This document shows positions 7,690 through 50,369 of a stretch of 64,000 nucleotides of DNA, in pieces (positions within the stretch are counted from its first letter, which is position 1; every line of letters begins with the position of its first letter). A program made the position numbers and the translations under genes. The notes under the pieces are model-generated. The model ran no database searches and was not told the DNA's origin. It worked only from the letters and a program-made list of their open reading frames with translations. Where the stretch lies: assembly GCA_030390025.1 (NCBI GenBank), contig CM059432.1, positions 85,190,001-85,254,000 on the forward strand, given 5' to 3'. The stretch is from Squalus acanthias (taxonomy: Eukaryota).

Positions 7690-9889
7690 TGATGAATGGG
7701 AAGACATGAATTGACAGGGACCAATGCAGGGATATGTAAGGGGTGGTTGGTTATTTGCAGGACTGCTTTGTGTCAGTGGCATTGAAGCAGGACGGGAAGA
7801 GTGGCCATTGCATGTGCTTCTGACATTGGTCCACTGGTGCAACCTAAGTAAATCATGTATTAATAAGGGCATCCCTGGCATCCCGGTCAGCAGTGTGAGC
7901 AGCTGGTGGTGCATCGCCCTCAGAACCTTTCTGCTCCTCGTCCTCGTCCTCCTTGGAATCATCTGCAGACGATGCGTACTCTGCACCTTGATCATCCTGC
8001 AGGTCCAAACCTTGCTGTTGTGCAATGTTGTACAGAGCGCAGCACACCACGACCATTCAAGACACCTTTGCTGATACGTATTGAAGGCTGCCTTCAGATC
8101 TTTCTAGGTACCTGAAGCGCATCTTCAGCATGAAGATAGCTTGTTCGATCACACATATGGTGGTCATATGGCATTAATTGTAGCGCAGTTGGGCTTCATT
8201 GGTTTAGTTTCTGAGGGATGCCATCAGGCAAGTTTGAAGTGGGCATCCCTTGACTCCTCGCAGCCACCCCTTAAGTCTGCTTGCAGATCTGAAGACGTCA
8301 GGAAGCTTGGACTGCCGCAGGACGAAAGCATCATGGCAGCTCCCCGGGTATCTTGTGCACACCTGCATAAATATCTCTTGGTGGTTGCACACCAGCTGTA
8401 TATTTAAGTAGAAGCCCTTGTGGTTCACAAATACCCCTGGTTGATCTGGGGGTGCACGGATTGCCACGTGTGTGCAGTCAATAATGCCCTGCACCTGTGG
8501 GAAGCCAGCCAGAGATGCAAAACCGAGCACCCACTCATTCTGACCAGCGTCATCACAGGCAAAGTTCACATAATTGTCGGCCCTGGCATACAACCCATTA
8601 GTCACCTGCATTCCGCATTTGTGGACTGCTGACTGGGAAATCCTGGATATGTCTCTGGCAAAGCCCTGGAAGAATCCGGAAGCTAAAATGTTGACGGCGG
8701 TGGTGACTTTGACAGCCATTGGTAACACGAGGCCACCAGATCTAGCAAGCAGCAGATGTCTGCCACCACCTGACGCAACAACCTAAGGCTCCTGAAACAC
8801 TGTTCGGACATGTCAAGGAAGCTCAGCCTCTTCCTGTATACCCTATGTCACAGGTAGTGCCTCCTGCGAGCTGCTTCCCTCTGCTGCTGCCCTCTCTGTT
8901 GCTCCCCTCTTTGCTGCTCCGCTCTCTGCTGTCCAGCTACAGGTCTCCCAAGAGCAGCTGCTGCAGAGGTCATATTGTTCCTCAACCGAGGTCCAATCTA
9001 AGGCAGCCAAAGTGCCACCCATCCTGCTGTGATTCAGAAAACTTCCAAAGAGTAGAAAGTAAACTCTCAGCAAAAGAAATGTGAACAAACACTTTCCCAC
9101 TAGCAACTAAGTTAGCAACTGAGTACTGAGTATTTATGACAGTATTTCCCTGAGTTTGAATCAAGCCCCTCAATTGCCATTGTGTTCTCGCCTTGCTTTC
9201 ACTGGTGAGTTTCAGGAAGCCTGGGAAACCTGTCAATGCACTGTTAAATTTGAAAGTGAGTTGAAATCTCACTCCAATTGAGCGATTAGCATATGTTAAT
9301 AGGCAACCCAGCTCTCCTGAGTGGGTTGCGCGCAAGCGACAACAACTTTCATTTATATAGCACCTTTAACATAGTAAAACATCCCAATGTGCTTCACAGG
9401 AGCATTATGAAACAAAATTTGACACCGAACCACATAATTAATTATTATTACAGGTGACCAAAAGCTTGGTCAAAGAGATAGGTTTTAAGGAGTATCCTAC
9501 AGGAGGGTAGAGAGGCGGAGAGGTTTAGGGAGCGAATTCCAGAGCTTATGGCTTAGGCAGCTGAAGAAATGGCTGCCAATGGTGGAGCGATTAAAATAGG
9601 GGATGCGCAAGAGGCCAGAATTGGAGGAGTGCAGAGATCTCGGAGGGTTGTAGAGTTGGAGGAGGTTACAAAGATCAGGAAGGATGAGGCCATGGAGGCA
9701 TTCGAAAACAAGGATGAGAATCTTAAATCGAGGCGTTGATGAACTGGGAGCCAAGCAGCCTAACGCGCTCCAGTTAAATGTGGAATTTGGCGGGTTGGAG
9801 CCGGCTTCTCGACGCGCTCACATTTTTGCCGGTTTTTAACCCCCACCCGCACCCAAACTGACATGCTCCTCCAGATTAAAATTCACCCC
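7690..9889 (-). pseudogene. Decayed Harbinger transposon with frameshifted HARBI1-like DDE transposase
   Basis: Fragments AGFPQVQGIIDCTHVAI, YPGSCHDAFVLRQS and VVCCALYNIA; terminus AAAATTCACCCC near 9889. Confidence 0.85.
9337..9752 (-). mobile_element. L2 LINE 3' fragment inserted in the Harbinger
   Basis: FKILILVF...LWNSLPKPLRL; homologous to the L2 at 53970-54938. Confidence 0.8.
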
Positions 9890-16200: not shown

Positions 16201-17600
16201 TGACCCACTCTGCTTATTTTTACCCAAAGCTCTACTCTGCTCTAGAGCCTTGACATTTCTCTTGCTGCTTTTAAATTTACTCTTTCCTAAATCCTCCCAC
16301 CCCCCACCACCCCTTCATTAGTTTAAAGCCCTGTCTACTGCCCTAGTTACTCGGTTCACCAGGACACTGGTCTCAGCATGGTTTAAGTGGAGCCCGTCCC
16401 AACGGAATAGCTCCCTCTTTCCCCAGTACTGGTGCCAGTGCCCCATGAACTGAAACCCCTTCCTCCCACACCACTCTTTGAGCCACGCATTTAAACCTCT
16501 AATCTGTTTGTCCCTATACCAATTTGCGTGTGGCTCAGGTAACAATCCAGAGATTATTACCTTTGAGGTTCTGCTTTTTAATTTGGATCCTAGCTCCTCA
16601 AACTCCCTCAGCAGAACCTCATTCCTAGTTCTACCTATGTTGTTGGTTCCTACGTGGACCATGAGAACTGGATCCTCCCCCTCCCACTCCAAGTTCTTCT
16701 CCAGCTGCGAGGAGATGTCTTTAACTCTGGCACCGGGCAGGCAACACAACCTTCGGAACTCTCGGTCGCGGCTGCAGAGAACAGTATCTATCCCCCTGAC
16801 TATACTGTCCCCTACCACAACTACATTCCCTTTCACTCCCCCCACTTGAATGGCCTCCTGCACCATGGTGCAATGGTCAGCTTGCTCATCCATCCTGCAG
16901 GCTTTTCCCTCATCCACACAGGCAGCAAGAACCTTATACTTGTTGGACAAGGGCAAAGGCTGAGGCTCCTCCAACACTGCACCTGGGATCACCTTACCTA
17001 CCTGAGTTGCAATCACACCCTACTGTCCTTGACCACTAACCAGACCTGTACCACTACCTAACCTAAGGGATGTGACTGCCTCTTGGATCAAAGTGTCCAG
17101 GTAACTCTCCCCATCCCTGATGCCCCGCAATGTCTGCACCTCATACTCCAGCACAAAAACTCTGAGCTGAAGTTCCTCAAGATGCATGCACTTACTGCAA
17201 ACGTGGCTGTCCGGGATCACAATGCTCTCCACAAACTCCCACATGCTGCAGTTGCGGCACACCACCTGCACTGCCAACCCTATATGACCTTGTTTTATTT
17301 AATTAAATTTGTAATTAGGTAACTTAGTTTACAGTGTAGTTTCTTGACTACTTACTTGATCTAGATTAAGTTAAGGGTACTGAAATTAAATATCTACCTG
17401 TAACACAAAGCAATACAAGTAGTGTAGTCAAAAAGCAGCAACTCCTTCCCCCTCTTCTCCAACTTCCTCCTCTTCTCCAAATTCCCACTCTTTCCAAATT
17501 CCCAAATAAAACACATTGTTCAAGTCCACTCCATTTAATCCTGCTCTGTGCTCTGCAGAAATGTTTACTTGTATACACTAGGAGCCTCACCCAATTTACA
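13214..17600 (-). mobile_element. Near full-length decayed CR1 LINE (ORF1 zinc finger plus SGNH esterase; ORF2 APE-RT)
   Basis: ORF1 pieces 17020-17277 (CxxC..HxCxxC) and 16318-17016 (VGDSIVRG...DGLHLN); ORF2 pieces 13700-16227; 3' tail near 13214-13240. Confidence 0.9.
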
Positions 17601-27974: not shown

Positions 27975-29410
27975 GTTAGAATGGGTGGCGCCTTATCTTG
28001 GACCTCGGACGAGGAACAAGATGACCATCAGCAGCAACAACAAACTGCTGTGGAGAGTCCTGCAGATGGTGAGCAGAGAGGGTAGCACTACCTGCGTAAC
28101 AGCATGTACAGGCAGAGCCTCTGCTTCCTTTATCTCTCAGAAGAACAAAGCTTCCGGAGGCTGAGATTGTCATGTCAGATGGTGGCAGACATCTGCAGCC
28201 TCCTTGAAGAACTGCACCCTGTTGGACCCGGTGGTCATGCATTAGCTGTGGCTGTGAAAGTGACCACCGTCCTCAACTTTTTTGCCTCCGGATCCTTCAA
28301 GGGTGCTACCAGAGACATGTCCAGGATCTCCCAGTTGGCTGCATAAGGCGGGTCACTGATGGGTTGTTTGCCAAGGCCAGCAATTATATCAACTTCTCCT
28401 GTGATGACACTAATCAGAATGAGCGGGCGCTTGGGTTTGCGTCTCTGGCTGGCTTCCCGCAGGTGCAAAGTGTCATCGACTGCATATACGTGGCAATCCA
28501 CGCACCTCCAGATCAACCAGGAGTATTCGTAAACCACAAGGGTGCACGTTCCATCATTCCATCACAGTGCAGCTGGTGCACAGCCACAAGAAAAGATTTA
28601 TGCAGGTGTTCATCAGATTCTCAGGGACCTGCCATGATGCTTTCATCCTGCGGCAGTCCAAGCTCCCTGACCTCTTTGGACCTGCAAGCAGAATTAAGGG
28701 TGGCTGCTAGGAGACAAAAAAGAATACCCGTTTGAAACTTGGCTGATGACACCCGTAAGAATCCCAACCAATGAAGCCCAAGAGCGGTACAATGATAGCC
28801 ATATAACAACCAGATGTGTCATTGAGCAAGCGATTGGCATGCTTAAGATGTGCTTCAGGTGCCTGGACAGATCTGGAGGCACCCTTCATTTCTCACCAGC
28901 CAGGGTCTCCAGAATGATCAAGGAGTGCTGCGCTCTACACAACATTGCGTAGCAGTGAAGACTGGAGCTGCAGGAGGAACAAGGCGCTGAGCACATATCC
29001 TTTGCGGATGAAGCAAGGAGGAGGAAGAGGAAGTGGAGGAGGAGGAGGAAGATGGCAACCCCAATGCAGCACCAGTAACTTATACTGCTGCCTGGGATGC
29101 CAGGGGTTCCCTTATAGATGTAAGGTTTGGTTAGTTATCACCACTGGACCGATGTAACAACCACATCTCATCCACCCCCAACCCAATCCCACTCACACAA
29201 AGCATTCCTGCAACCAACCAACCAACCATTGCACAGTCCCCGCTTTGGTCCCCGTCAATTCCTGTCTTCCCATTCATCAACAAGCAACTGAAAAGATGAG
29301 TTGACTCCCAGCAACTAAGAAGGGAAACACGGGAAAGTGGTGCAAAGTAATAAATTTTAAGTAATTCTACTAAAGAATGGAAGTTAACAACATCACATTT
29401 TCTCATACAC
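27975..29410 (+). pseudogene. Harbinger DDE transposase pseudogene; the element resumes after the CR1 at ~33975-34210
   Basis: [36 protein letters not shown] and CCALHNIA. Segment 33975-34210 matches the Myb-gene 3' end seen at ~23790-24050. Confidence 0.85.
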
Positions 29411-29629
29411 CCAGTGTCGGGAGCGGAGAGAGCAGCAGCACAGTGCGTAGTTAAACTCACTTTCGCGGGCTTTTTTGCAGAGGCCAGTGTCAGGAGTGGA
29501 GAGAGCAGCAGCACAGTGAGTATTTAAACTCACTTTCGCGGGCTTTTTTTCAGAGGCCAGTGGCGGGAGCGGAGAGAACAGCAGCACAGTGAGTAGTTAA
29601 ACTCACTTTCGCGGGCTTTTTTTCAGAGG
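29411..29629 (+). repeat. 3 x 73-bp tandem monomers at the CR1 5' end
   Basis: Units start at 29411, 29484 and 29557 (CCAGTGTCGGGAGCGGAGAG...TTTCGCGGGCTTTTTT.CAGAGG). Confidence 0.9.
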
Positions 29630-29938
29630 CTTACCAATCTCACAGACCGGCGGCGGCGTTCCAGAGCCACGTCACAATTCAAAAAGTGACGCGGACAAAA
29701 GGAAGCAGCTGATTGGGTGAGTACTGTCAGGTGAGTATTTATACTACTCTGTAGTTTGACAGGTAAGGTTAATAGTTTATAAAGTTTAGTAGGTCCTAAT
29801 TTTTGTGGTTATAGTTCCTAAGGTCTCTGTTGTGTAGCAGGGAGTGCTAGTATACAAGGGCCCTTGAGTATATCATTTAATTGTAGTGTAATTTGTGGTA
29901 TTGATTTGAGTTAATTTAAATTAATTAAAGGATAAGTC

Positions 29939-30889
29939 ATGGCAGCACAGCTCAGCCCCATGGCATGCTCCTCCTGCACTATGTGGGAAATCAGGGACAC
30001 TTCCTGTGTCCCTGTTGACCATGTGTGCGGGAAGTGTATCCAGCTGCAGCTACTGGCAGACCGCATTGCGGCGCTGGAGCTGCGAATGGATGCACACTGG
30101 AGCATTCGCGATGCTGAGGACATCGTGGATAGCACGTTTAGGGAGTTGGTCACACCGCAGGTAAAGGCTGCACAAGCAGGAAGGGAATGGGTGACCACCA
30201 GGCAGAGTAGTAGGCGCAGGCAGGTAGTGCAGGGATCCCCTGTGGACATCCCCCTCTCAAACAGATATACCACTTTGGATATTGTTGAGGGAGATGGCTT
30301 ATCGGGGGAAGGCAGCAGCAACCAACTTCCTGGCACCATGGGTGGTTCTGCTGCACAGGACGGGAGGAAAAAGAGCGGGAGAGCTATAATGATAGGGAAT
30401 TCTATTGTAAGGGGAATAGATAGGCGTTTCTGCGGCCGCAAACGAGACTCCAGGATGGTATGTTGCCTCCCTGGTGCAAGGGTCAAGGATATCTCGGAGC
30501 GGCTGCAGGGCATTCTGGAGGGGGAGAGTGAACAGCCAGTTGTCGTGGTGCATATAGGTACCAACGATATAGGTAAAAAATGGGATGAGGTCCTAAAAGC
30601 TGAATATAGGGTGTTAGGAGGTAAATTAAAAAATAGGACCTCAAAGGTAGTAATCTCAGGATTGCTACCGGTGCCACGTGCTAGTTAGAGTAGAAATAGA
30701 AGGATATTTCAGATGAATACATGGCTAGAGGAATGGTGCAAGGGGGAGGGATTCAAATTCCTGGGACATTGGAACTGGTTCTGGGGGAGGTGGGACCAGT
30801 ACAAACTGGACGGTTTGCACCTGGGCAGGACCGGGACCGATGTCCTAGGGGGAGTGTTTGCTAGTGCTGTTGGGGAGGGTTTAAACTAA
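29939..30889 (+). pseudogene. CR1 ORF1 (zinc finger/leucine zipper plus SGNH esterase), one premature stop at 30686-30688
   Basis: CSSCTMW...HVCGKC, IGNSIVRG and HIGTND; the frame resumes to DGLHL...VGEGLN* as in the intact paralog at 39652-40602. Confidence 0.9.
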
Positions 30890-33873
30890 AATGGCAGGGG
30901 GTTGGGAACCTGTGCAGGGAAACAGAGGAAAGGGAAGCAAGGATAGAAGCAAAAGACAGGAAGGAGAAAAGCAAAAGTGGAAGGCAGAGAAATCAAGGGT
31001 GTAAATCAAACAGGGCTACAGTAAATAATAATTCTAAAAGGACTAAGAGTGTTAAAAAAACAAGCCTGAAGGCTTTGTGTCTTAATGCGAGGAACATTCG
31101 TAATAAGGTGGATGAATTAGCTGCGCAAATAGATGTAAACGGATATGATATAATTGGGATTACGGAGACATGGCTCCAGGGTGACCAAGGCTGGGAATTC
31201 AACATCCAGGGGTATTCAATATTCAGGAAGGACAGACAAAAAGGAAAAGGAGGTGGGGTAGTATTGCTGGTTAAAGAGGAGATTAACACAATAGTAAGGC
31301 AGGATATTAGCTGTGATGATGTGGAATCTGTATGGGTAGAGCTGAGAAATACCAAGGGGCAGAAAACGTTAGTGGGAGTTCTATACAGACCCCCAAACAG
31401 TAATGCTGAGGTTGGGGATGGCATTAAACAGGAAATTAGAGATGCGTGCAATAAGGGCACAGCAGTTATCATGGGTGACTTTAATCTACATATAGATTGG
31501 GCTAACCAAATTAGTAACAATACTGTGGAGGAGGAATTCCTAGAGTGTATACGGGATGGTTTCCTGCACCAATATGTCGAGGAACCAACTAAAGATCAGG
31601 CCATCTTAGACTGGGTATTATGTAATGAGAAAGGATTCATTAGCAATCTTGTTGTGCGAGGCCCCTTGGGGAGGAGCGATCATAATATGATAGAATTCTT
31701 CATTAAGGTGGAGAGTGAAGTAGTTAACTCAGAGACTAGGGTCCTGAATTTAAATAAAGGAAACTACGATGGTATGAGGCGCGAGTTGGCTAGGGTGGAT
31801 TGGGGAGCATTACTTAAAGGGTTGACGGTGGATAGGCAATGGCAAACATTTAAAGATCGCATGGATGAACTACAGAATTTGTTCATCCCTGTTTGGCATA
31901 AAAATAAAAGAAAAAAGTTGACTCAACCGTGGCTAACAAGGGAAATTAGGGATAGCATAAGATCCAAGGAGAGGACATATAAATTGGCCAGAAAAAGCAG
32001 CAAACCTGAAGATTGGGAGCTGTTTAGGATTCAGCAAAGGAGGACAAAGGGATTAATTAAGAGGGGGAAAATAGAATATGAGAGTAAGCTTGCTGGGAAC
32101 ATAAAAACTGACTGTAAAAGCTTCTATAGATATGTGAAGAGAAAAAGATTGGTGAAGTCAAGAGTAGGTCCCTTGCAGTCAGAATCAGGGGAATTTATAA
32201 TGGGGAACAAAGAAATGGCTGATGAATTAAATACATACTTTGGTTCTGTCTTCACAAAGGAGGACACAAATAAACTCCCAGAGATGTCGGGGAATATAGG
32301 GTCTGATGAGAGGGAGGAATTGAATGAAATCAGTATTTGTAGGGAAATGGTGTTAGGGAAATTGACGGGATTGAAGGCCGATAAATCCCCAGGGCCTGAT
32401 AATCTACATCCTAGGGTACTTAAGGAAGTGGCCCTAGAAATAGTAGATGCATTGCTGGTCATCTTTCAAAATTCTATAGACTCTGGAACAGTTCCCATGG
32501 ATTGGAGGGTAGCTAATGTAACCCCACTATTTAAAAAAGGTGGTAGAGAAAAAATGGGGAATTATAGACCAGTAAGCCTGACATCAGTAGTGGGCAAAAT
32601 GCTAGAGTCCATTATAAAAGATGTAATAGCAGTGCACTTGGAAAACAGTGACAGGATCGGACAAAGTCAACATGGATTTACAAAAGGGAAATCATGCCTG
32701 ACTAATCTACTGGAATTTTTTGAGGATGTAACTGGTAGAATAGCTAAGGGAGAACCAGTGGATGTGGTGTATTTGAACTTTCAGAAGGCTTTCGATAAGG
32801 TCCCGCCTAAGAGATTAGCGTGCAAAGTTAAAGCACATGGGATTGGGGGTAAGGTACTGATTTGGATAGAGAACTGGTTGGCAGACAGGAAGCAAAGAGT
32901 TGCAATAAACGGGTCTTTTTCCGAGTGGCAGGCAGTGACTATTGGGGTACCACAGGGATCGGTGCTAGGACCCCAGCTATTCACAATATATATTAATGAT
33001 CTAGACGAGGGAACTAGATGTAATATCTCTAAGTTTGCAGACGACACAAAGCTGGGTGGGCGTGTGTGCTGTGAGGAGGATGCAGAGAAACTCCAGTATG
33101 ATTTGGACAGGTTGGGTGATTGGGCAGATGCATGGCAGATGCAGTATAATGTGGATAAATGCGAGGTTATCCACTTTGGTGGCAAAAACAGGAAGACAGA
33201 TTATTATCTGAACGGCAATAGATTGGGAAAAGGGGAAGTGCAACGAGATCTGGGAGTCCTTGTGCACCAGTCGCTGAAGGTAAGCATGCAGGTGCAGCAG
33301 GCGGTTAAGAAGGCAAATGGTATGTTGGCCTTCATAGCGAGAGGATTCGAGTACAGGAGCAAGAATGTCTTGCTGCAGTTGTACAGGGCCTTGGTGAGAC
33401 CACACCTTGAGTATTGTGTGCAGTTTTGGTCGCCTTATCTGAGGAAGGATGTTCTTGCCATGGAGGGAGTGCAGCGAAGATTTACCAGACTGATACCTGG
33501 GATGGCAGGAATGATGTATGAAGAGAGATTGGGTCGATTAGGCTTATATTCGCTAGAGTTTTGAAGAATGAGAGAGAATCTCATTGAAACTTATAAAATT
33601 CTAACAGGACTAGACAGACTAGATACAGGAAGGATGTTCCCAATGGCGGGGGAGTCCAGAACCAGAGGTCACAGTCTAAGGATAAGGGGTAAGCCATTTA
33701 GGACTGAGATGAGGAGGAATTTCTTCACCCAGAGAGTGCTGAACCTGTGGAATTCTCTACCACAGAAGGCAGTTGAGGCCAATTCATTAAATATATTCAA
33801 GAAGGAGATAGATATATTTCTTAAGGCTAAAGGGCTCAAGGGATATGGGGAGAAAGCAGGGACAGGGTACTGA
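30880..33873 (+). pseudogene. CR1 ORF2 (APE endonuclease plus reverse transcriptase), one premature stop at 33562-33564
   Basis: LNARNI, ITETWL, GDFN, SDHN, QGSVLGP and FADD. The frame is open from 30880 with no ATG until 31471. Confidence 0.92.
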
Positions 33874-34229
33874 AGTTGGATGATCAGCCATGATCTCATT
33901 AAATGGCGGAGCAGGCTCGAGGGGCCGAATGGCCTACTCCTGCTCCTATCTTCTATGCTTCTATGCTTCTATGCATGTGCATACCCTTGTGCAATTACAA
34001 AGCTTTACTCTTTTTCCTATCGCTCCTGGTGATGCAACGCCTGTGGCTTTAGCCGAGGCAGGGGCAGGCTGCTCAGATCCCTGCTCTGACTGCTGAGATG
34101 CTCTTGGCTGACATGACGGCCCTGCTAAAGACTGCTCCACCTTTACCTGTGCAGGGTATTCAGCAGAGAAGTATGTTGTGTACTGTCTGAGTAGGGGTGG
34201 GGGCAACGGGGCTCAGGAAACTGCCCAGT

Positions 34230-35017
34230 GAAATGAAGGCGAGATTGAGCTGCAGTTCAGGTGGGTATTTAACTTGTCATTGCCCCATCTGAATAAAAGT
34301 TCATTTATTACAGCTGGTGCCTCAGTTCTCTGTGGCAGACATTCGGCAGAGAGTTCTTGTGTTGATATAGCTTTTTCTAACTTTGGAGGCTTTCAAAGTG
34401 ACAAGATCAGGATGGGAGGCGCATTGGATGCATTTGACAGTACCTCAGAAGAGGAAGACCATCACCAGCCACGGCAGCGATGACATGCTGTGGTGGGATA
34501 AGTACGTGCACAGGAGGGAGGTGCACCGGAGAGAGGTGCACAGGAGGGAGGTGCACAGGAGGGAGGTGCACAGGAGAGAGGTGCACAGGAGGGAGGTGCA
34601 CCGGAGGGAGGTGCACAGGAGAGAGGTGCAAAGGAGAGAGGTGCACAGGAGGGAGGTGCACAGGAGGGAGGTGCACCGGAGAGAGGTGCACAGGAGGAAG
34701 GTGCACAGGAGGGAGGTGCACCGGAGAGAGGTGCAAAGGAGAGAGGTGCACAGGAGGGAGGTGCACAGGAGGGAGGTGCACAGGAGGGAGGTGCACCGGA
34801 GAGAGGTGCACAGGAGAGCGGTGCACAGGAGGGAGGTGCACAGGAGAGAGGTGCACAGGGGAGAGGTGCACAGGAGAGGAGCTGAAGTCGCAGGAGGCAC
34901 TATCCAAATAACAGTGCCTGCAGGCAGAAGCTCAGCTTCCTTAACCTCTCAGAAGAGCAGAGCTTCTGCAGGCTTAGGTTGTCACATCAGGTGGTGGCAG
35001 ACATCTGCAGACTCATA
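34230..35017 (+). mobile_element. Harbinger transposase 5' fragment
   Basis: [19 protein letters not shown]...RQKLSFLNLSEEQ...RLRLSHQVVADIC, homologous to ~27980-28200 and to the reverse complement of ~8750-9025. Confidence 0.7.
34506..34880. repeat. 15-bp minisatellite (GTGCACAGGAGRGAG), ~25 units
   Basis: Direct inspection; it explains the VHRRE, CTSLL and CTGGR ORFs. Confidence 0.95.
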
Positions 35018-35910
35018 GGGGGAGAAATTCAGTATCGCCCCATTTGGGGCGCAATTATCGGCCGGGCGCAAAGATTAGCGCCTGGCGCTAATTATCGCCA
35101 CCGACTGCAAACTTGACTTTTATCACCCCTGGAGGTGATTGCAGCGCTAAATCAGGCGCTTCACACCTGTCTTAAGGCGCAAAGGCCGAGGAGCGAGGCG
35201 CTACCTCAGAGCGCTGGCGAAGCTCATGTAATGTCAGTCAGCAATGGAACACACACACAATGGCACGGGCCAGTTCTTAAAGGGGATGGTTAATCTTGCT
35301 TTCCATCCACATCCTGCTCATTGCAGCCTTGAATCTCGGCCTGGAGAGACCGGCACATCAAATCTGCTGGAAAGAACAATGGAGAGTACCAGGCAAAGAG
35401 CTCAGAGTGCAGCCCCCACAGTCTCTTCTAAATCGATACAAGGAATGGCAAATCAAAATGAACCTGCAAAGTGCTGCTCAGTACCCAAAACTCCTTCACA
35501 CAACGTTGAATCTCTCCAGAAGTCTCTCCCTCTCTCTCTCAGAATGCGTAGTTCAAAAATGGCACCAACAATAAAAGGCAGGAAGCGGTCACCTTTAAAT
35601 AGCGCTCCCCCTTTCCCTTCATGACTGCAGAACGCTCCACTCAAACTGTCGTTGCTAGCGTCAGGCGGTAAGGCAGGGGGCGCCACTCAATATCCGCTCT
35701 GGGGCGATGCCGGGGCGTTGCGCATTCGACTGACGTCACGATCTGCCGGCGCAGGAGATCGTGGCGGTAGTGTTTAGCGCCGCCGCAAAATGTCTAGTTA
35801 ATTTCGCGAGCGGCGCAAACTTCGCCGCGCCTGGGCGCCAGATGCCTTGCGCCCCATTAGCACCCTCTTAAGGCGCTAACGGGAGGCGCAACCAACTGAA
35901 TTTTTCCCCC
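35018..35910. mobile_element. Non-autonomous Harbinger (~890 bp), derivative of the 1-2205 family
   Basis: TIRs GGGGGAGAAATTCAGT / ACTGAATTTTTCCCCC; near-identical inverted copy at 55726-56617. Confidence 0.9.
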
Positions 35911-36366
35911 TGAGTGTCTCCGCTTCCACCATTTCCGTCGGCAGTGAATTCCAGGTCCTTACCTCTCGTTGCGTAAAAAAGTTTTTCCCCACATCTCCCC
36001 TGTATCTCTTGCCCAAAACCTTATATCTGTGTCCCCTAGTCCTTGTACCATCAACTAGTGGGAACAGCCTTTCCCCATCTAGCCTATCCAAACCCGTCAT
36101 AATCTTGTATACCTCTATCAAATCACCCCTCAACCTCCTTTGCTCTAATGAAAACAAATCCAGCTTCTCCAACCTGTCCTTGTAGCTAAGATCCCCCATC
36201 CCCGGAACCATTTTGGTAAATCTCTCCTGCACCCTCTCAAGGGCCTTCACATCCTTCCTAAAGTGTGGTGACCAGAACTGGACGCAATACTCCAGTTGTG
36301 CCCTAACCAACGCTTTATAAAGGTTCAGCATAACTTCTCTACTTTTGTACTCAATATCTCTATCTA

Positions 36367-36481
36367 AGAATGTGATGCGGAGATTGTAACTTTACCTGAC
36401 GAAGGGGCGAAGGAGCTCCGAAAGCTTGTAATTTTAAATAAATCTGTTGGACTATAACCTGGTGTTGTGCGACTTCTCATT
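36367..36481 (+). mobile_element. 115-bp Penelope-type terminal insert
   Basis: 8-bp TSD TCTATCTA (36359-36366, 36482-36489); contains a hammerhead motif followed by AATAAA. Confidence 0.75.
36392..36431 (+). ncRNA. Minimal type I hammerhead ribozyme
   Basis: UUAC-CUGACGA-A-GGGGC-gaagga-GCUCC-GAAA-GC-UU-GUAA: core boxes, stem I UUAC/GUAA, stem II GGGGC/GCUCC, palindromic stem III AAGCUU. Confidence 0.75.
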
Positions 36482-38245
36482 TCTATCTATGAAGCCCAAG
36501 ATCCCATATGCTTTGCTAACTACTCTCTCAATATGTCCCGCTACCTTCAGGGACCTATGCACATTAACTCCCAGGTCCCTCTGTCCCTGCACACTCTTTA
36601 AAACTGTGCCATTAAGTGTATATTGCCTCTCCCTGTTCCTTCTGCCAAAATGCATCACCTCACACTTCTCTGTATTAAATTCCATCTGCCACTTGTCTGC
36701 CCATTCTGCTAGCCTTACTATGTCCTGTTGCAGTCGATTGGTATCATCCTCACTGTTTGCCACACCCCCAAGTTTGGTGTCATCAGCAAATTTAGAAATT
36801 CTACTCTGTATTCCAATATCCAGGTCATTTATATATATCAAAAAAAGCAGTGGCCCCAGCACTGACCCTTGGGGAACACCACTGTCTACCATCCTCCAGT
36901 CTGAAAAACAGCCATTTACCACAACTTGCTGTTTTCTGTCCTTAAGCCAATTCCTTATCAAAGCTGCCACTGACCCAACTATTCCATGAGCCTCAATTTT
37001 GTTAACCAGCCTTCTATGTGGTACTTTGTCAAACGCCTTCCTAAAATCCATGTAGACAACATCCATTGCATTCCCTTCATCAATCCTCTCTGTTACTTCA
37101 TCAAAAAATTTAATTAGTCAAACACAATCTGCCTTTTACAAATCTGTGTTGGCTCTCCTTAATTAGCTTAATCCTCTCGAAATGCAGGTTTATTTTTTCC
37201 TTGATTATTGTTTCTAAAATTTTACACACCACTAATGTTAAACTGACCGGCCTGTAGTTACTAGGATTGTCCTTACACCCTTTCTTGAACAATGATGTCA
37301 CATTTGCCACTTTCCAATCCTCAGGCACCTCCCCCACATCAAGGGAAGATTGGAAAATTATGGCAAGCCCTTCCGCTATCTCCTCCCCCAATTTCCTTAG
37401 CAATCTGGGATGCAAGCCATCTGGACCAGGCGACTTAGCCACTCTAAGCATACCCAGCCTTTCTAGTACATCCTGTCCATCAATTTTCACCCCTTCCAGT
37501 GCTTCTACCTTTTCCACTTCTACCGATATTTTGTCAGCATCCACCTCCTTAATAAACACCGATACAAAGTACTCATTGAGTATTCTAGCCTTACCCTGCG
37601 CCTCTAAGCATATATCATCTTCTTTGTCCCTAATAGGCCCCACCCTGCCTCTTACTACCCGCTTACTGTTTACAAGCCGGTAGAAGATTTCTGGGTTCCC
37701 TTTTTTGTTAACCGCCATTCTACTCTCATATTCTCTCTTTGCCAATCTTATTTTCATCTTCGCTTCCCCTCTCAACCTATTGTATTTGGTCTGGTTCTCT
37801 CTTGAAGAATTCATCTGACATGCATCATACACCCTCTTTTTTTGTTTCTCCATCTTCTCTTTCTCCCTCGTCATCCAAGGAGCCCTTGCTTTGTTTCCCT
37901 TACCCTTTCCTCTTGTTGGAATGTACCTAGCCTGTACTTGGAACATCTCCCTCTTAAAGATCACCCATTGTTCCGTTACAGTTTTTCCTGTCAGTCTTTG
38001 GTTCCATTTTACCTTAGCTAGATCCTTTCGCATCCCATCGAAGTTAGCCTTATTCCAGTTTAGAAGTTCCACTTTAGATTGTTCCTTGCTCCTCTCCATT
38101 GCTAATCTAAATCTTATGATACGATGATCACTCGTACCCAAGTGTTCTCCCACAGACACTTGGTCAACCTGGCCCATCTCATTCCCCAGCACCAAATCCA
38201 GCAATGCCTCCTTCCTAGTTAGACCAAGAACATATTGGTCAAGGA

Positions 38246-38976
38246 GCATAGAAGCATAGAAGATAGGAGCAGGAGTAGGCCATTCGGCCCCTCGAGCCTG
38301 CTCCACCATTTAATGAGATCATGGCTGATCATCCAAATTCAGTACCCTGTCCCTGCTTTCTCCCCATATCCCTTGATACCTTTAGTCTTAAGAAATATAT
38401 CTATCTCCTTCTTGAATATATTTAATGAATTGGCCTCAACTGCCTTCTGTGGTAGAGAATTCCACAGGTTCACCACTCTCTGGGTGAAGAAATTCCTCCT
38501 CATCTCAGTCCTAAATGGCTTACCCCTTATCCTTAGACTGTGACCTCTGATTCTGGACTCCCCCGCCATCGGGAACATCCTTCCTGCATCTAGTCTGTCT
38601 AGTCCTGCTAGAATTTTATAAGTTTCAATGAGATCCCCTCTCATTCTTCGAAACTCTAGCGAATATAAGCCTAATCGACCCAATCTCTCATACGTCATTC
38701 CTGCCATCCCAGGTATCAGTCTGGTAAATCTTCGCTGTACTCCTTCCATGGCAAGAACATCCTTCCTCAGATAAGGCGACCAAAACTGCGCACAATACTC
38801 AAGGTGTGGTCACACCAAGGCCTTGTACAACTGCAGCAAGACATCCTTGCTCCTGTACTCGAATCCTCTCGCTATGAAGGCCAACATGCCATTTGCCTTC
38901 TTAACCGCCTGCTGCACCTGCATGCTTACCTTCAGCGACTGGTGCACAAGGACTCCCAGATCTTGTTGCACTTCCC
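38246..38976 (-). mobile_element. 5'-truncated CR1 (same family as 29411-33974) nested in the second-family CR1
   Basis: TSD CAAGGA at 38240-38245 and 38977-38982; (CTTCTATG)n tail. Confidence 0.9.
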
Positions 38977-39651
38977 CAAGGAAATTCTCCTGAACACATG
39001 TCAGAAATTCCTCCCCTCTTTTCCCTTTACCCTGGCATTGTCCCAATCGATATTTGGGTAATTAAAGTCCCACAATATCACCGCTCTATAGCTCTTGCAT
39101 ATCTCTGCGATTTCCCTGCAGATTTGCTCCTCTACCTCCCTCTCACTATTTGGAGGCCCATAGAATACTCCCCAATAGCGTAATCATACCCTTTTTGCTC
39201 CTCAACTCTAACCAAATGGATTCTGTCCTTGTCCCCTCAAGAACTTCCTCCCTTTCCAAAAGTACAATGTCTTCCTTAATGAGCACTGCCACCCCACCTC
39301 CCTTTTTTCCTTCCCTAACTTTTCTGAACACCTTGTATCCTTGAATATTAAGTGCCCAGTTCTCACCAGTTTTAAGCCACATTTCCGTTATTGCCACAAC
39401 ATCATATTGCCACACAGCTAATTGTGCTTGTAGCTCACCAACCTTATTCACCACACTTTGTGCGTTTACGTACATGCATTCTAAACACTTTTTTGAATTT
39501 TTCGTAGTCTTTCTTAGTCTGCTCCTATCTGATATGGTACTACTACCGCCTCCAGTACTATCTTCTCTAGTATTATTCAACACACTCACTCTTTTATGCA
39601 CCTGATTCCTCTTTTCTATTCCTATATGCTGGTGCCCATCCCCCTGCCAAG

Positions 39652-40602
39652 CTAGTTTAAACCCTCCCCAACAGCACTAACAAACCTCCCCGTGAGAATA
39701 TTGGTCCCGGCTCTGTTGAGGTGTAACCCGTCCGGCTTGTACAGGTCCCACCTTCCCCAGAAATGGTCCCAATGCCTCAGGAATCTAAAGCCCTCCCTCC
39801 TGCACCATCTCTCCAGCCACGCATTCATCTGTTCTATCCTCCTATTTCTGTACTCACTATCACGTGGCACCGGGAGTAATCCGGAGATTACTACCTTTGA
39901 AGTCCTGCTTTTTAATCTCTCTCCTAGCTCCCTAAACTCTGCCTGCAGGACCTCATCCCTCTTTCTGCCAATGTCATTGGTACCGATATGGACAACGACC
40001 TCTGGCTGTTCACCCTCCCCCCTCAGAGTGTCCTGCAGCCGCTCAGTGACATCCTTGACCCTGGCACTAGGGAGGCAACATACCATCGTGGAGTCACGTC
40101 TGTGGCCGCAGAAACTCCTGTCTGCTCCCCTAACTATTGAATCCCCTACCACTATTGCTCTTGCACTCTTTTTCCTCCTCCCCTGTGCATCTGAGCCACC
40201 CGTGGTGCCGTGGTCTTGACTTTGGCTGCACTCTCCAGAGGAACCATCGCCCTCACCAGTACTCAGAACAGAATACTGGTTGGAGAGCGCGATGCACTCC
40301 AGGGACTCCTGCACTACCTGCCAGGTCCTCCTCTTCTGACTGGCGGTCACCCATTCCCCCTCTGCCTGCATACTTTTAAGCTGCGGGGTGACCACCTCTA
40401 GAAACGTGCTATCCACGTAACTCTCCACCTCGCAGATGCACCGCAGTGACTCCAGACGCCGCTCAAGCTCCGAAACCCGGAGCTCGTGTTGCAGTAGCTG
40501 GCAACACTTCCCGCACATGTGGTTATCCAGGCTACGTGAAGCGTCTAGGACTTCCCACATAGCACAGGATGTGCACTCCATGGAACTGAGCTGCCCTGCC
40601 AT
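39652..40602 (-). CDS. CR1 ORF1 protein (zinc finger/leucine zipper plus SGNH esterase), uninterrupted, 316 aa
   Basis: CTSCAMW..HMCGKC, VVGDSIVRG, HIGTND and DGLHLN. Confidence 0.85.
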   Translation of the reverse strand: MAGQLSSMECTSCAMWEVLDASRSLDNHMCGKCCQLLQHELRVSELERRLESLRCICEVESYVDSTFLEVVTPQLKSMQAEGEWVTASQKRRTWQVVQESLECIALSNQYSVLSTGEGDGSSGECSQSQDHGTTGGSDAQGRRKKSARAIVVGDSIVRGADRSFCGHRRDSTMVCCLPSARVKDVTERLQDTLRGEGEQPEVVVHIGTNDIGRKRDEVLQAEFRELGERLKSRTSKVVISGLLPVPRDSEYRNRRIEQMNAWLERWCRREGFRFLRHWDHFWGRWDLYKPDGLHLNRAGTNILTGRFVSAVGEGLN

Positions 40603-40789
40603 GCCTCTATTTAATAGACTAAGAACTAACCCAGCAGAAATAAACTTAAAACTTCACAAAAAACACTCCCCAGTTACTCACCAATCAGCTCCTTCCCTTG
40701 TGCCAATGTCACTTTTTTTACTCTGACGTCACTTTTTCAAAAACTGCCTCTGTTGAGTTGCTGCCACTCCTTTTAACTGCTCCACTCTC

Positions 40790-43240
40790 GCTGTGCTCCC
40801 TTCAGGTCCGCTCCTTACGGTCTCCCGTGGCGAGCGGGCAAGTTGAAAACATTGCTGATGATGACAGTATGCTCACACCTAATCCTCCTTCTCACATCCC
40901 ACTTACCCCTCAACCCACAATCTCTTCTCACTTACAAGCTGCTGATGGTGTATGCATGGATATCTTGCTTTTGCCCCTTCCCCTCACCACAACCCGACCC
41001 TTGTGCCTTTCTCCTTTCAGATACCCAAGAAATCCCACCAACACAGCCAGTCCCCGAAGTGATGGAGCAGGAGAGTGAAGGAAGAGGCACCATCACTGCA
41101 TCTGACACTCAGAAAATGGCACTGCGCGGACTTTAGAGGGTAGCATAGGGGCGGAATCTGCATGTGGTGAGTCACCGGGCATGAGTGGGCTGCAGCGAGG
41201 CCAGGGGAAAGGGTAGCTCGGGTGCTAGCTCCCCGGAGGGCAAGTTCGTGTGCAAATTTTGCTGCTCAGGAATCAGATGATGACCTCAATGGGGCGGCCT
41301 TTAGAAGAAGGGTGATGGTCATGCACACAGAAATGCTTGGTGCAATGGCAAGCCTACCAGAGAGCCTCTTGTCAGTGTCAAGGATGAGTCCGGCTCCAAC
41401 ATGGCACGAGGCATTGCACAGAGTTTAGAGCCCATGATTTCCAGGATGGAAATGATGGGTGACTCCACGAGAGACCTTGGGGACCCAACCATGATGCAGT
41501 ATGTGATGGGCGATGTCACAGCTTCCATTGCAGCACAGGCGGAAGCGACCCAACATCTTAGTGCTGCAGTGGAAGCTCAGACTGCTGCCATCGTGGCTGG
41601 GTTTACGAGTGGGAAAAGGGGCTTGCGGTGTCTCACAGCACTGAGACGTCACCCTGGGGATTGGCAGAGGCTCTGTGGAGCAAAAACCGGCTGTCCTCTC
41701 TCAGGATGACAGCATTCGTACTGCCACTCTGCCAGTGCCCTTGCTGCTGCCTATCATGCAGCCAGCCTAAACTGCTGCCGCCGAAGCTGAGGTGGTGCAG
41801 TCTACAGCCAGGTCTTCTATGCCCAGAGCAGCATGCAAGGCCATCTGTAGTCTCCCCCACTGAAAGTCAGCAGCCTTCCACCAGCCATGTGGCAGCACTG
41901 CGTAGGAACACTAGAGTAGGAAAAGGAACACGAAAGACAAACACTAAGGGAATGCACAAGGGTGGTTAGTTGACGCGTTTTTTGGTTTGGATTGGATAAA
42001 TTTATAAATTATGTTTGGAATGTTTATTTTGTGGTTGATCTCATTTCAGCTTTGTGCCCAGGAGGATGCTGTGATGTTCCGTGACAGAGGGATGGTAAGA
42101 TGGGGATGTATTAAGCAACGGGGATCTGGGGTTTCGTTCATTGGAACCGGAGTCTGATGAGGCGCTCAGAGACAGCCCGTCCGGAACGGGGATCTGCTGC
42201 CTGTCTCCTCTCTTCCTCCTCCACAGTGTCAGCTGTGGCTCAGTTGGTAGCACCCTCGCCTCCGAGTCAGAAGTTGTGGGTTCATAGTCCCACTCCAGAG
42301 ACTTGAGCACAAAAATGTAGGCTGACACTCCAATGCAATGTTGCGGGAGTGCTGCACTGTTGGAAGTGCTGTCTTTCAGATGAGATGTTAAACCAAGGTG
42401 TCTGCTCTCTCAGGTGGACGTAAAAGATCTTATGGCACTATTTCGAAGAACAGGGGCGGTACCCTGCCTAATATTTATCTCCCGACCAACATCACTGTAA
42501 CAGATTATTTGATCACTATCACATTGCTGTTTATGAGAGCTTGCTGTGCGCAAATTGGCTGCCGCATTTCCTACATTACACCAGTGACTGCACTTATTTC
42601 ATTGTCTATAAAGTGTTTTGGGACATCCGGTGATTGTGAAAGGCGCTATATAAATGCAAGGCTTTCTTTATCTTTTCTTTTTTCCTCCTGAGGTGGTCCC
42701 GGAACCCGTGGTGGCAAGGGCTGCGCCCTCATGATGGCCAAGTTGTGGAGCATGCAGCAGACCACCACGAAATGGGACACCCGCTCCGGAGTGTCCTGGA
42801 GGGCTCCTCCCGAGTGGTCAAGGCAGTGGAACCATTGCATTAACACCCCGATGGTCTGCTCAATGAGGTTTCTCGTGGCAGTATGGCTCTCATTATATAT
42901 TGCTGGCCACGAGTGGTGGGGCTGCAGAGGGGTGTCATCGGCCAGGTGTAGAGCGGATAGCCCTTGTCCGAGTAGCCACCCTTGGGTTTGACGTGGTGGC
43001 TGGAAGATTGCTGGCACACCGGACTGGCGCATGACTGCTGCCAGGATACTGGACACTCACCATCATGATGTGCTGGGCATGGTCGCACACCAACTGCACA
43101 TTAAGAGAGTGGTAGCTTTTGCGGTTATGGAACATCTCAGGATTGGTATGCGACACCTGTGTGCAGTCGATGGCGCCCTGCACCATGGCGAAGCCTGATA
43201 TCCTGAAAAAGCCACATGCGCGAACCTCCTACTCCTCTCT
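40790..43240. mobile_element. Decayed Harbinger: Myb gene 3' part (+, ~41020-41970) convergent with transposase (-, ~42090-43240)
   Basis: VQGAIDCT, TRNLIEQTIGVL and VVVCCMLHNLAI; ~41150-41900 is homologous to exon 3 of the Myb gene at 1-894. Confidence 0.8.
42221..42680 (+). mobile_element. Full-length tRNA-headed DeuSINE (SacSINE1-like)
   Basis: A-box TGGCTCAGTTGG, B-box-like GGTTCATAGTCC, Deu-domain-like GGTGGACGTAAAAGATC..ATGGCACTATT, tail GCGCTATATAAATGCAAG, TSD TTCCTCCT. Confidence 0.85.
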
Positions 43241-47260: not shown

Positions 47261-47492
47261 CCGAGATTAATGCACACCAGCCACTCGCATGTTGTTTTCC
47301 TTGCAGCTTCCACAATGGAAGGAGCTGTGTGAAGGGATCACCCTGTACGGGTTTCATTTTTAAAGTGTTCTAAATATTATTAATTTATTATTTTATATTT
47401 ATTCAACCCGGAATAGCTGATTTAATGTTGTTATATTTATTATTGTTACTCTTAAAAAAACAAATCACTGATTTGCTGTAGTCGATCTGCCC

Positions 47493-48071
47493 ATGGCTGA
47501 AAAGATCCCAACGGGAATGGCTAAGAAAGCATCCCGATCCACAACCTCCCTTCCCCCGGAGCCCATGGAGATCATCAGGAGCAAGGCTTGTTCCAGAAGG
47601 GTAAAAATCAACGTTGGGGGACTTAACCACGAAGTCTTGTGGAGGACATTGGAAAGGTTACCCCGGACTCGTTTGGGGAAACTGAGGGATTGCAACACTC
47701 ACGAATCCCTGTTGGAGACCTGCGATGATTATAACCTCGATGAAAACGAGTACTTTTTTGATCGCCACCCGGGGGCTTTCACGTCAATTTTGAATTTCTA
47801 CCGCACTGGGAAATTGCACATGATGGAAGAGATGTGCGCGCTCTCCTTCGGCCAGGAACTCGATTACTGGGGGGTTGATGAGATCTACTTGGAGTCCTGC
47901 TGCCAAGCCAGATACCACCAAAAAAAGGAGCAAATGAACGAGGAACTGAGGCGTGAAGCTGAGACCATGAGGGAGAGAGAATGCGAAGAGTTTGATAACT
48001 CGTGCTGTCCCGATAAAAGGAAGAAGTTGTGGGATCTGCTCGAAAAACCCGGCTCGTCAGTGGCCGCTAAG
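47493..48071 (+). CDS. KCNB2: Voltage-gated potassium channel Kv2.2, first coding exon (N-terminus and T1/BTB domain, 193 codons)
   Basis: MAEK...[19 protein letters not shown]...[24 protein letters not shown]...[10 protein letters not shown]...[22 protein letters not shown], then donor AAG|GTAAGG. Residues VKIN, LNHE, GKLH, FGQE and CCPDK match KCNB2 rather than KCNB1 (from recall). Confidence 0.95.
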
Positions 48072-50369
48072 GTAAGGTGCTGATGGGCTTCCCCATAAAG
48101 AGACACAGTCGGCTTGATCCTTTCACCAGCACAGACTTGCAGGCATACTCTGAATGAAATAAACCTAAATTTCAGTTTACACTTTTAATTGAGTCACTAT
48201 TAAAAATGTAAAATCATTGGAGTTTTAAATTGTTAAATTTCTGAACCATTTGCCATTGCGTATTAACCAAGTCGTCAGTTCAAACGAATGACAGGGACAG
48301 CGCCGAAGCCTGTTGTCATGGTGATTTGACGGCTTGTAAATATTACTTGTGCTGTTTGCAATATTTAATACTTTAAATGGAGACGACGCAGACTTTTATG
48401 GGAAGGTTAGAAAAGTTAAAGTATGTCGATAGGATTCATGTGACAGTTTTGAATACTGCAAGGAACACGATATGTTTGTGTAATTGTATGGTTTACGATT
48501 CATAATCAGACCATCTGTGTTTTTCATTATCAGAGGATAAAACTTAAAACTCGAGCACAATTTCAGATTCGTTGCGGCGGTAATAACCGAATCTCTCTGG
48601 GTGGAAACAATCTATTATAATAACCTAAAGGATTGATGGAATGAGGACGAGGCGATTAAACTTGTTGGGTGTTTCATTGTGCACTTTACCATTCTAGCGC
48701 AAAACCAAATCGGTCGGTTTACGATTTGTTCGCCGTCTTCAGAAAACAGTTTTATTACCTCTCCTTAAGTGTTCCCATTGAGGAATTCCGTTTGGAGTAT
48801 TCACTGCCTGTTTATTTTGCCTTGTTTCTTGCTTCGCTAACCTCCGCCCCCGTAAAAAGAGAAACCAACACACAAGAAACCAAGGATTCTGTTCCACAAG
48901 AATGATATATTTTGGGCGATTCTTCATGAGAATATCATCTAGAATTAAAATTAGAATTTCATAATATTTAGGAATCGAATCTGGATCATTATAATAATTA
49001 AAGTACATAATTTCACACATTTTCCTATTTTGGTTTAAAGTCACACTAAGCAGATACTACTAAATGGACCAATACAATATTATTCAAATAGTCAATGATT
49101 GTTAGTTATTACAGCAATGCTAAGTACAAATGAACATTTTCTCTGTGTTCCCTAAAGTAGGCACTTGATTGCTTCCCGCCTCTTACTGAACAAAAAATGT
49201 AGAATGAATGCCTAATGAAAAAGAACCCTCAGAAGAAGTCTGGAAATAAAGGAAAGTTCCAACTAATTTGCCGCTATAGTTAAGCTCTACCTCTTCGCTT
49301 GATTTAAACAGAGCAAAATGCAAGGGGGAGGGGGCACAGGTAACACTCTCTTGGTTTGTAGTACACTCCTTTTCTTAATTTCTTCATAGACAAACTGTCA
49401 GTGACTTTCTCCATTTCTGCAATGCAATATCTCAACTCGCATTTCTCCAGCTCTGCAATGCATTGTTTCAATACCATTCTTTCATCTCTGCAACACTCTA
49501 AAGCTGTAGTTATATTGCATGAGTGTTCTGCCAACAGTAGCTGCAGAGTGCGATTCACAACTGGCAACACTCCTGTTATGTTACTTGGCTGACAATTATG
49601 TCATGGCCAACAGGAGGTAGCTCAGAGCAGTTTGCTGGCAGATTTTTAAAAATGTTTTAACAGCACAGATGGTAGCATTTGCTTTCTCAAAACACTCAAA
49701 ACAAACTGCTTAAGTTTCTATAGTGCCTAGAAGGCCCAACTTACTGCCAGAACAATCCATTTTGATACTCCATTGGAATTATACTCCATATGTGTCAAGC
49801 CCAAGTGGAAACTGTCGTGCAGTGATACAAAAATGACAGTATAACTGCACCCCAAGGCTGCAGTTATTTTGCAGCTAACAGTTCAAAATTATTATCTGTG
49901 AAGTGCATTGCACAGCCCCTAGCCCAGAGTTGTGTTGTCAGTTGTGCGTCCAGCCAGATCTCAATAAAGTCAACCATAAAGGAGCTCTGCATAAACGTTT
50001 TTTTGTGTGGATGTGCGGAGCTCTGCTCACAGGACTGCTCATTTTTAATGTTAGGAGAGCAGGTGGTGCCTTCTTTCATAACATTAAAAATATTCCTTAC
50101 AACATTTTAAAATGCAGCTTTGCACCAAGCTGGGGTTATACTGCAGCTGATGCAAACTCTAACCTGTGTGAGACAGCCTCCTGGTGGTGTCTCACACTGC
50201 TTGGCTTTAGTGTGCTCTGGTCTCAAAATGGAATCTCGTATCCAAGTTTATACTTTTGTATTGATGGTTACCCAAAACCGCTTCACATCAACATCAAACT
50301 GGCAGTATTACTGTAGCCTAGCTCACTTGATGTACCAGGAGCTTTTGTGTCAGTTCCTTAACTTTCTTC

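Follow-up and report, generated by a model that had tools for sequence, protein, structure and literature searches.

The closest described relatives of the element considered here are the CR1 LINEs with an esterase-containing ORF1 (ORF1 type IVB of CR1 subgroup 7 in PMC4120745; canonical vertebrate CR1 in PMC13343379). The available parts of these sources give them the same architecture, namely a zinc-finger-like module and an esterase in ORF1, and an APE endonuclease and a reverse transcriptase (RT) in ORF2. In the portion of PMC4120745 at hand esterase CR1s are restricted to vertebrates, whereas the homologs recovered here also include annelid-named relatives. CR1 is the dominant LINE of birds, accounting for 11.8% of the chicken assembly (PMC11835228, available portion), and it is abundant in the genome from which our sequence derives. 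The available sections of PMC4120745 and PMC13343379, whose main text does not contain the word frameshift, say nothing about the translation of the often AUG-less CR1 ORF2. Similarly, CR1 is not mentioned in the available part of PMC5009743, and no description of a CR1 frameshift was found in the literature searched, outside of which two original CR1 papers fell.

Several better-characterized systems offer partial likenesses. The nearest precedent for a CR1 frameshift is provided by the Dictyostelium elements TRE5-A and TRE3-A, APE-type non-LTR elements that both need a -1 frameshift for ORF2; unlike CR1 they belong to another clade and carry another ORF1, and the accessible text of their description mentions no G-run (PMC5911963). 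The coronavirus-type signal uses the same U_UUA_AAC heptamer in the same frame, with an upstream protein that exceeds the polymerase fusion. However, in the available part of PMC7618472 it includes a pseudoknot or stem-loop after a spacer of 5-9 nt, neither of which is conserved in CR1, and the CR1 junction is further distinguished by a stop directly after the heptamer. The -2/-1 frameshift of the arterivirus PRRSV resembles the CR1 junction in having no structure, but a short linear low-complexity motif at a 10-nt spacer (PMC4937337, as far as its accessible part goes); there, the motif is C-rich, is bound by PCBP and nsp1-beta and acts on GG_GUU_UUU, whereas in CR1 it is a G-run behind U_UUA_AAC with a putative binder. 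Finally, SART1 and L1 share with CR1 a bicistronic LINE RNA in which ORF2 lies just behind ORF1, but their ORF2p arises as a separate product by initiation on an AUG that coincides with or lies close to the stop; in CR1 this AUG is not conserved and the slippery heptamer is.

The window, i.e. the whole 64-kb stretch of DNA that was analysed, contains many LINE fragments, among which the element at 39.6 kb is a near full-length esterase-type CR1 LINE. Its features, together with two further junctions in the window, are the following:

39652..40602, minus strand: ORF1, 316 aa and intact, with a Cys-pair zinc-finger-like N-terminus, an SGNH/GDSL esterase and a C-terminus reading ...GLN-stop
39655..39661, minus strand: slippery heptamer U_UUA_AAC in the ORF1 frame, the last codons being GGT TTA AAC TAG
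39652..39654, minus strand: ORF1 stop adjoining the heptamer, TAG in this copy and TAA or TGA in relatives
39645..39654, minus strand: spacer of 10 nt (stop codon plus 7 nt), variable in sequence and nearly fixed in length
39640..39644, minus strand: G5 run that begins 11 nt past the heptamer; candidate for a linear 3' stimulator
39631..39649, minus strand: 19-nt motif common to the 30.9-kb copy, with which the homology of the two families ends on the 3' side
39476..39630, minus strand: family-specific basic linker, open in the -1 frame and not alignable to the 30.9-kb linker
39473..39475, minus strand: in-frame ATG lying three codons ahead of the endonuclease's conserved Asn, in a weak context (pyrimidine at -3, T at +4)
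38978..39475, minus strand: 5' part of the ORF2 APE endonuclease, its frame broken near 39158 in this copy
38242..38977, minus strand: inserted 5'-truncated CR1 copy of the 30.9-kb family, inside the endonuclease, with a target-site duplication of 5-6 bp
35879..38246, minus strand: rest of ORF2, covering the end of the endonuclease and the reverse transcriptase; decayed, with 43-51% identity to its 30.9-kb counterpart
30880..30901, plus strand: comparator junction of the 30.9-kb family, with the heptamer, TAA and a G5 at the same offset; endonuclease Asn without a preceding Met
16300..16327, minus strand: third junction, with the heptamer, TAA-TGA and a longer G-rich tract; a decayed copy with ORF2 in the 0 frame

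ORF1 of the 39.6-kb element is matched by the Pfam Lipase_GDSL_2 profile (E 2e-16). The two Cys pairs at its N-terminus, which are zinc-finger-like by reading of the sequence and gave no profile match, are kept across alignment A2. Its relatives come from sharks, rays, frogs, turtles and lizards, the best named ones being those of sharks and rays. An earlier note on this DNA had read GGT TTA AAC TAG on the minus strand and a -1 frame running without a stop into the endonuclease, and both readings were borne out. The heptamer occupies 39661-39655 and the stop 39654-39652, and the -1 frame from 39661 (FKLAWQGDG...KCLECMYVNAQSVVNK) is open for 168 codons, up to 39158, with a Pfam Exo_endo_phos match over residues 67-136 (E 6.4e-6). 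Equally present are the motif that the note placed just 3' of the stop (39649-39631) and the ATG that it placed three codons before the conserved Asn (39475-39473). Upstream, the -1 frame of this copy is closed at a distance of five codons from the heptamer and holds no ATG. The pattern TTTAAACTRR occurs three times in the window against 0.9 expected, a count that was reached in 5 of 100 shuffles and that taken alone is weak evidence against chance. All three matches nevertheless lie in frame as the last codons of an esterase ORF1, a placement that is not due to chance.

The APE endonuclease of ORF2 is recognized by Pfam, and the RT by its likeness to the Pfam-confirmed ORF2 of the 30.9-kb element. 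The copy inserted at 38242..38977 is 96.5% identical to 33232-33970. The endonuclease is interrupted and the remainder of ORF2 decayed; the 39.6-kb copy cannot make a working ORF2p, and the argument developed below concerns its family. A 3' tail of short tandem repeats is a feature of CR1 LINEs; it is present on the 30.9-kb family, and in the 39.6-kb element another repeat truncates the 3' end near 35900.

The 39.6-kb and 30.9-kb elements had been proposed to conserve the slippery site independently, a proposal that did not survive comparison of their ORF1s. Their whole ORF1s are 63% identical, and a nucleotide alignment at 76% identity runs from the ORF1 start (40606) to 39631, ending at the last base of the shared motif. 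The identity of four-fold sites is 61% in ORF1 (51/84) as opposed to 33% in the endonuclease (5/15). The linkers were indeed unlike each other, as had been noted: in 30-nt blocks counted from the heptamer onwards, 25 of 30 positions are identical in the first block and 14, 9, 9 and 7 in the next four. ORF2 and the esterase tell opposite stories of kinship: ORF2 amino-acid identity is 40% between the 39.6-kb and 30.9-kb elements (over a 200-residue stretch) and 68% between the 30.9-kb and 16.3-kb elements, whereas the corresponding esterase identities are 73% and 55%. Trees restricted to the loci of this analysis are in partial agreement: the three window esterases cluster with 100/100 support, while the 39.6-kb ORF2 forms a long branch apart from the other two, a placement that comes with a long-branch warning. 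These relationships suggest that the 39.6-kb family likely acquired the junction cassette along with its ORF1 by a module swap, and it is therefore not counted as an independent origin. Common ancestry of the ORF1 module likewise explains the full 19-nt match, as the note itself had allowed, so that this match is not independent evidence. Reticulate exchange of ORF1 has been described for the esterase-ORF1 CR1 group in the available part of PMC4120745.

Independent support for the heptamer comes instead from distant lineages. A metagenome scan yielded at least 45 loci (from 366 of 607 matching stretches), of which the 32 with a match reaching the later part of the esterase were taken; the other 13 matched its first part only and showed no junction. 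Nine of the 32 end before the junction, three are of another type without the heptamer and 20 are of the CR1 type. Among the matches listed, these 20 loci carry TTTAAAC in 17 cases, GTTAAAC in one and a single substitution in two decayed copies; they fall into about five lineages and are thus not 20 independent draws. One group of loci resembles a stork CR1 gene model (bird-type); another has its closest named relatives, at 72-76% identity, in the tubeworm Ridgeia; L001 was assigned to neither. Esterase identity between the shark-, bird- and tubeworm-type groups is as low as 26-44%. The heptamer is conserved at synonymous sites across these three lineages. In the ORF1s concerned Leu is encoded by TTA in 14% of cases and Asn by AAC in 39%; the codon preceding the Leu encodes any of seven residues (G, A, S, Y, H, C or F), with T as third base in 22 of 23 junctions, the sole exception giving G_UUA_AAC; and the stop changes between TAG, TAA and TGA while the heptamer stays.

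The protein databases concur. LN forms the C-terminus of 53 of 82 homologs, or 53 of the 60 that reach the end of the esterase, and of 79 of the 92 tubeworm-type homologs that do so (among 120 matches listed). The 93 cluster representatives reaching the esterase end (of 150) comprise 53 ending in LN, 9 in GN and 31 in other residues. In the 53 the distance from the catalytic His motif to LN is 20-34 residues, and with tails of such varying length LN has no fixed position in the fold. Only one of the 53 has before LN a residue whose codon is unable to end in T, against a background of 17%. Eight of the nine GN-ending representatives read QGN. One lineage of CR1-like esterase ORF1s (P0264, P0272, P0275, P0279, P0280, P0284, P0310, P0334 and P0340) ends in QGN or SGN, endings which, as known from the proteins alone, would fit a G_GGA_AAC heptamer.

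Several observations accompany these searches. L002, L003, L005 and their relatives represent esterase-type CR1 ORF1s with named annelid relatives. The three heptamer-less loci (L034 4180-4195, L040 735-755 and L023) are esterase elements of another type, presumably L2-like; in L034 and L040 an ATG overlaps the last ORF1 codons, as in reinitiation-type LINEs. P0009, a shark-type CR1 ORF1 on a 4-kb contig, is filed as a Pseudomonas aeruginosa SGNH hydrolase and probably reflects contamination. In the GTDB scan 1 of 171 stretches passed, as a 21-residue match in a bacterial contig, and was not used. The viral collection held no relatives for either alignment (0/34 and 0/11), and its eight pattern matches were rejected as unrelated phage DNA with neither esterase nor endonuclease. 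Two natural in-frame ORF1-ORF2 fusions among the longer proteins look like gene models on mutated copies and were not counted.

Downstream of the stop, 21 junctions offered enough sequence for comparison, and a full G5 starts exactly 11 nt past the heptamer in 16 of them, G being found at post-heptamer positions 11-15 in 21, 19, 19, 19 and 19 junctions, respectively. The exceptions are a run placed 3 nt earlier (16.3-kb copy and L001), an interrupted one (L028) and two mutated in decayed copies. Of the 19-nt motif only this G-run survives across distant lineages. The motif had been put forward as the sign of a cis-element, and what stands of this is conservation at the nucleotide level 3' of the stop, carried by the G-run that the distant lineages share, but not the 19-nt match, which ORF1 ancestry accounts for. 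The amino-acid constraint on WQG that the note named as a possible cause finds no support: the -1-frame residues at the G-run vary, the Gly at -1-frame codon 7 is encoded by GGG in 16 of 17 cases as against 31% in ORF2, and the preceding codon ends in G in 21/21 whatever it encodes.

The folding and covariation analysis that had been suggested was run on the sequence downstream of the heptamer, with a negative outcome. Stem-loop folding 5-9 nt downstream gave z +1.06 in the 39.6-kb copy, and RNAalifold found no consensus base pair in 16 junctions. Local hairpins with z of -2 or lower occur in only two of 21 junctions, with stems unlike each other. In a search for a long-range partner of the G-run the best duplexes fell at different places in 10 elements, L005 being without any C4 run, and Rfam gave no match to the junction at E up to 1. 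What is found is a conserved linear motif that keeps a distance of about 10 nt from the heptamer and has no accompanying structure, as in arterivirus-type frameshifting. Judged by its conservation, the G-run would be, with somewhat better than even confidence, a linear 3' stimulator and cis element. As the PRRSV motif is bound by protein at a 10-nt spacer without structure, a protein-bound linear element is favored by analogy, and the G-run may, tentatively, act as a single-stranded site of this kind. The candidate binders would presumably include hnRNP F/H, CNBP and GRSF1.

Taken at the level of sequence, these observations make it highly probable that ORF2 would be produced as an ORF1-ORF2 fusion by programmed -1 frameshifting on U_UUA_AAC. 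The joint reading, in which this frameshift would be helped by the G5 run 11 nt downstream, appears likely. The majority of ribosomes would terminate at the stop and release ORF1p, while a minority would slip on the heptamer, the Leu and Asn tRNAs re-pairing one base back, and translate onward, giving a predicted fusion junction ...L-N-L-A-W-Q-G... and a low, fixed ratio of ORF2p to ORF1p. Slow decoding of the adjoining stop may lengthen the pause. More speculatively, a protein on the G-run, either a host G-tract binder or ORF1p, might block the mRNA entry channel. The start of the endonuclease lies in the -1 frame in 14 of the 17 junctions where it could be located, 13 of them with a stop-free linker, and in another frame in three (16.3 kb, L022 and L035), which are read as decay.

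If correct, ORF2p would be an esterase-endonuclease-RT fusion and the ratio of ORF1p to ORF2p would be set as in retroviral Gag-Pol, with consequences for the annotation of CR1 ORF2 and the design of CR1 retrotransposition assays; stimulation by a G-run that lacks structure and keeps a fixed distance would, for its part, be of an undescribed type. A bolder and rather doubtful extension is that esterase-type CR1 LINEs, from annelids to birds, might make their RT as an ORF1-ORF2 fusion by means of a portable cassette, made up of the heptamer and stop, the 10-nt spacer and a G-run to which ORF1p or a G-tract protein of the host binds. Such a cassette would be carried along at each ORF1 swap between lineages; -1 frameshifting would then be stimulated by protein in an element resident in animal genomes, and ORF2p would be under feedback control.

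Among the alternatives, the one that fares best holds that the heptamer and adjoining stop give low basal frameshifting, the G-run being merely the start of a Gly-rich linker or serving some other RNA-level role. That no structure was found downstream agrees with it, as do the 2-11 G5 runs per 2-3.6 kb in these elements and the G-run offset that differs in two junctions; moreover, a LINE may need little ORF2p. It is at odds with the GGG and G-ending codon biases noted above and with the distance fixed between tubeworm-type and vertebrate lineages whose linkers are unalignable, and we regard it as a serious but unlikely account. Alternatively, ribosomes might be stalled on the heptamer by an RNA G-quadruplex formed from the G-rich tract. 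Vertebrate copies do offer 2-6 G-tracts, and ViennaRNA with quadruplexes allowed predicts one in five of 21 junctions including the 39.6-kb copy. In the accessible part of PMC3919603 quadruplexes stimulate -1 frameshifting on UUUAAAC with an optimum spacer of 6-8 nt. The spacer here is 10 nt, none is predicted in 16/21 junctions, and within 37 nt past the stop the tubeworm-type loci L003, L005, L006 and L022 contain just one G-tract each, all of which make a quadruplex improbable as the general stimulator.

A further alternative is termination-reinitiation after the ORF1 stop, which would use either an ATG close to where the endonuclease begins or, as has been proposed for mammalian L1, no AUG at all. 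Reinitiation is a described route for SART1 and L1 in the available parts of PMC5972666 and PMC3708506. The in-frame ATG at 39475, about which the earlier note had cautioned, does exist, but it is a weaker objection than feared: it lies 176 nt past the stop in its weak context, behind two out-of-frame ATGs (39639 and 39479), and is not kept across families, its position being Leu, Ile or Val-like in relatives. No Met precedes the endonuclease start in 6 of 14 in-frame junctions. An AUG overlapping or adjoining the stop is absent at 39.6 kb and 30.9 kb and was seen only in the 16.3-kb copy, as a TAATG overlap, and in the four bird-type loci L008, L010, L011 and L013, where it lies 2 nt past the stop, being in frame in the 16.3-kb copy and in several of the bird-type ones. 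Reinitiation would also leave the synonymous fixing of the heptamer and the stop-free -1 linker unexplained. As the general route it is quite improbable, though it may occur in some lineages alongside frameshifting. An account without any decoding role, in which the conserved island would be either a hotspot of recombination or template switching or else a C-terminal signal at the protein level, is very improbable: the 39.6-kb/30.9-kb homology does end exactly at the island and the ORF1 and ORF2 identities are incongruent, but over annelid-vertebrate distances a hotspot would be a consequence of conservation rather than its cause, and protein constraint cannot fix synonymous sites, nor does LN keep its distance from the fold.

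Reads from two RNA runs of a related organism, 5,628 and 8,895 of which aligned on 39380-39900, do not show element-driven expression but permit positions to be compared. Other families align at 39632-39667 only, so that depth there is 4-8 times that of the flanks, and the loose ends belong to several different linkers. A 55-nt stretch covered by 2,623 and 3,820 reads (6,443) and two contig sets yielded 17 variant rows at the threshold of at least 3%, with zero at 39653-39661. The position adjoining the heptamer (39662, non-synonymous) varies in 8-11%, the third base of the stop (39652) in 82-87% and 39650 in 50-54%, and the G-run positions vary in up to about 4% of the aligned reads. As read alignment selects for likeness, low variation is partly circular, and weight is given to the contrast between positions alone. 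DNA raw-read runs X21 and X22 contributed 4 and 0 aligned reads. The idea that the TAG serves as a splice acceptor was rejected, many copies having TAA or TGA as their stop; the reads on 39380-39900 showed no joints.

Some additional features of the window deserve mention. The segments 38248-39322 (-) and 3102-4180 (-) are 96.6% identical and share the same junction between an endonuclease fragment and the inserted 3' end of the 30.9-kb family; this repeated composite could stem either from local duplication or from retrotransposition of a chimeric RNA via the inserted tail. The 5' UTRs at 29480-29940 (+) and 40600-40800 (-) have a common short block, an ATTGG box followed by a splice-donor-like GTGAGT, which is consistent with a 5' module shared by the 30.9-kb and 39.6-kb elements, and in the former the 5' UTR further contains a roughly 70-nt tandem repeat. 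The junction at 16300-16327 (-), with its two successive stops and TAATG overlap, has the strongest quadruplex score (G4Hunter 2.28), and its 0-frame ORF2 probably results from a single-base change in the G tract. A tandem array of a 15-nt repeat with several open frames lies at 34438-34950. Fragments at 8207-8782 (-), 28208-28732 and 42649-43056 (-) look like Harbinger-type transposase, with presumed Myb-like partner fragments at 1203-1862. Finally, at 47472-48080 (+) there is a host exon of a voltage-gated potassium channel, which we take to be KCNB-like; it encodes the N-terminal BTB/T1 domain (Pfam BTB_2, E 4e-32).
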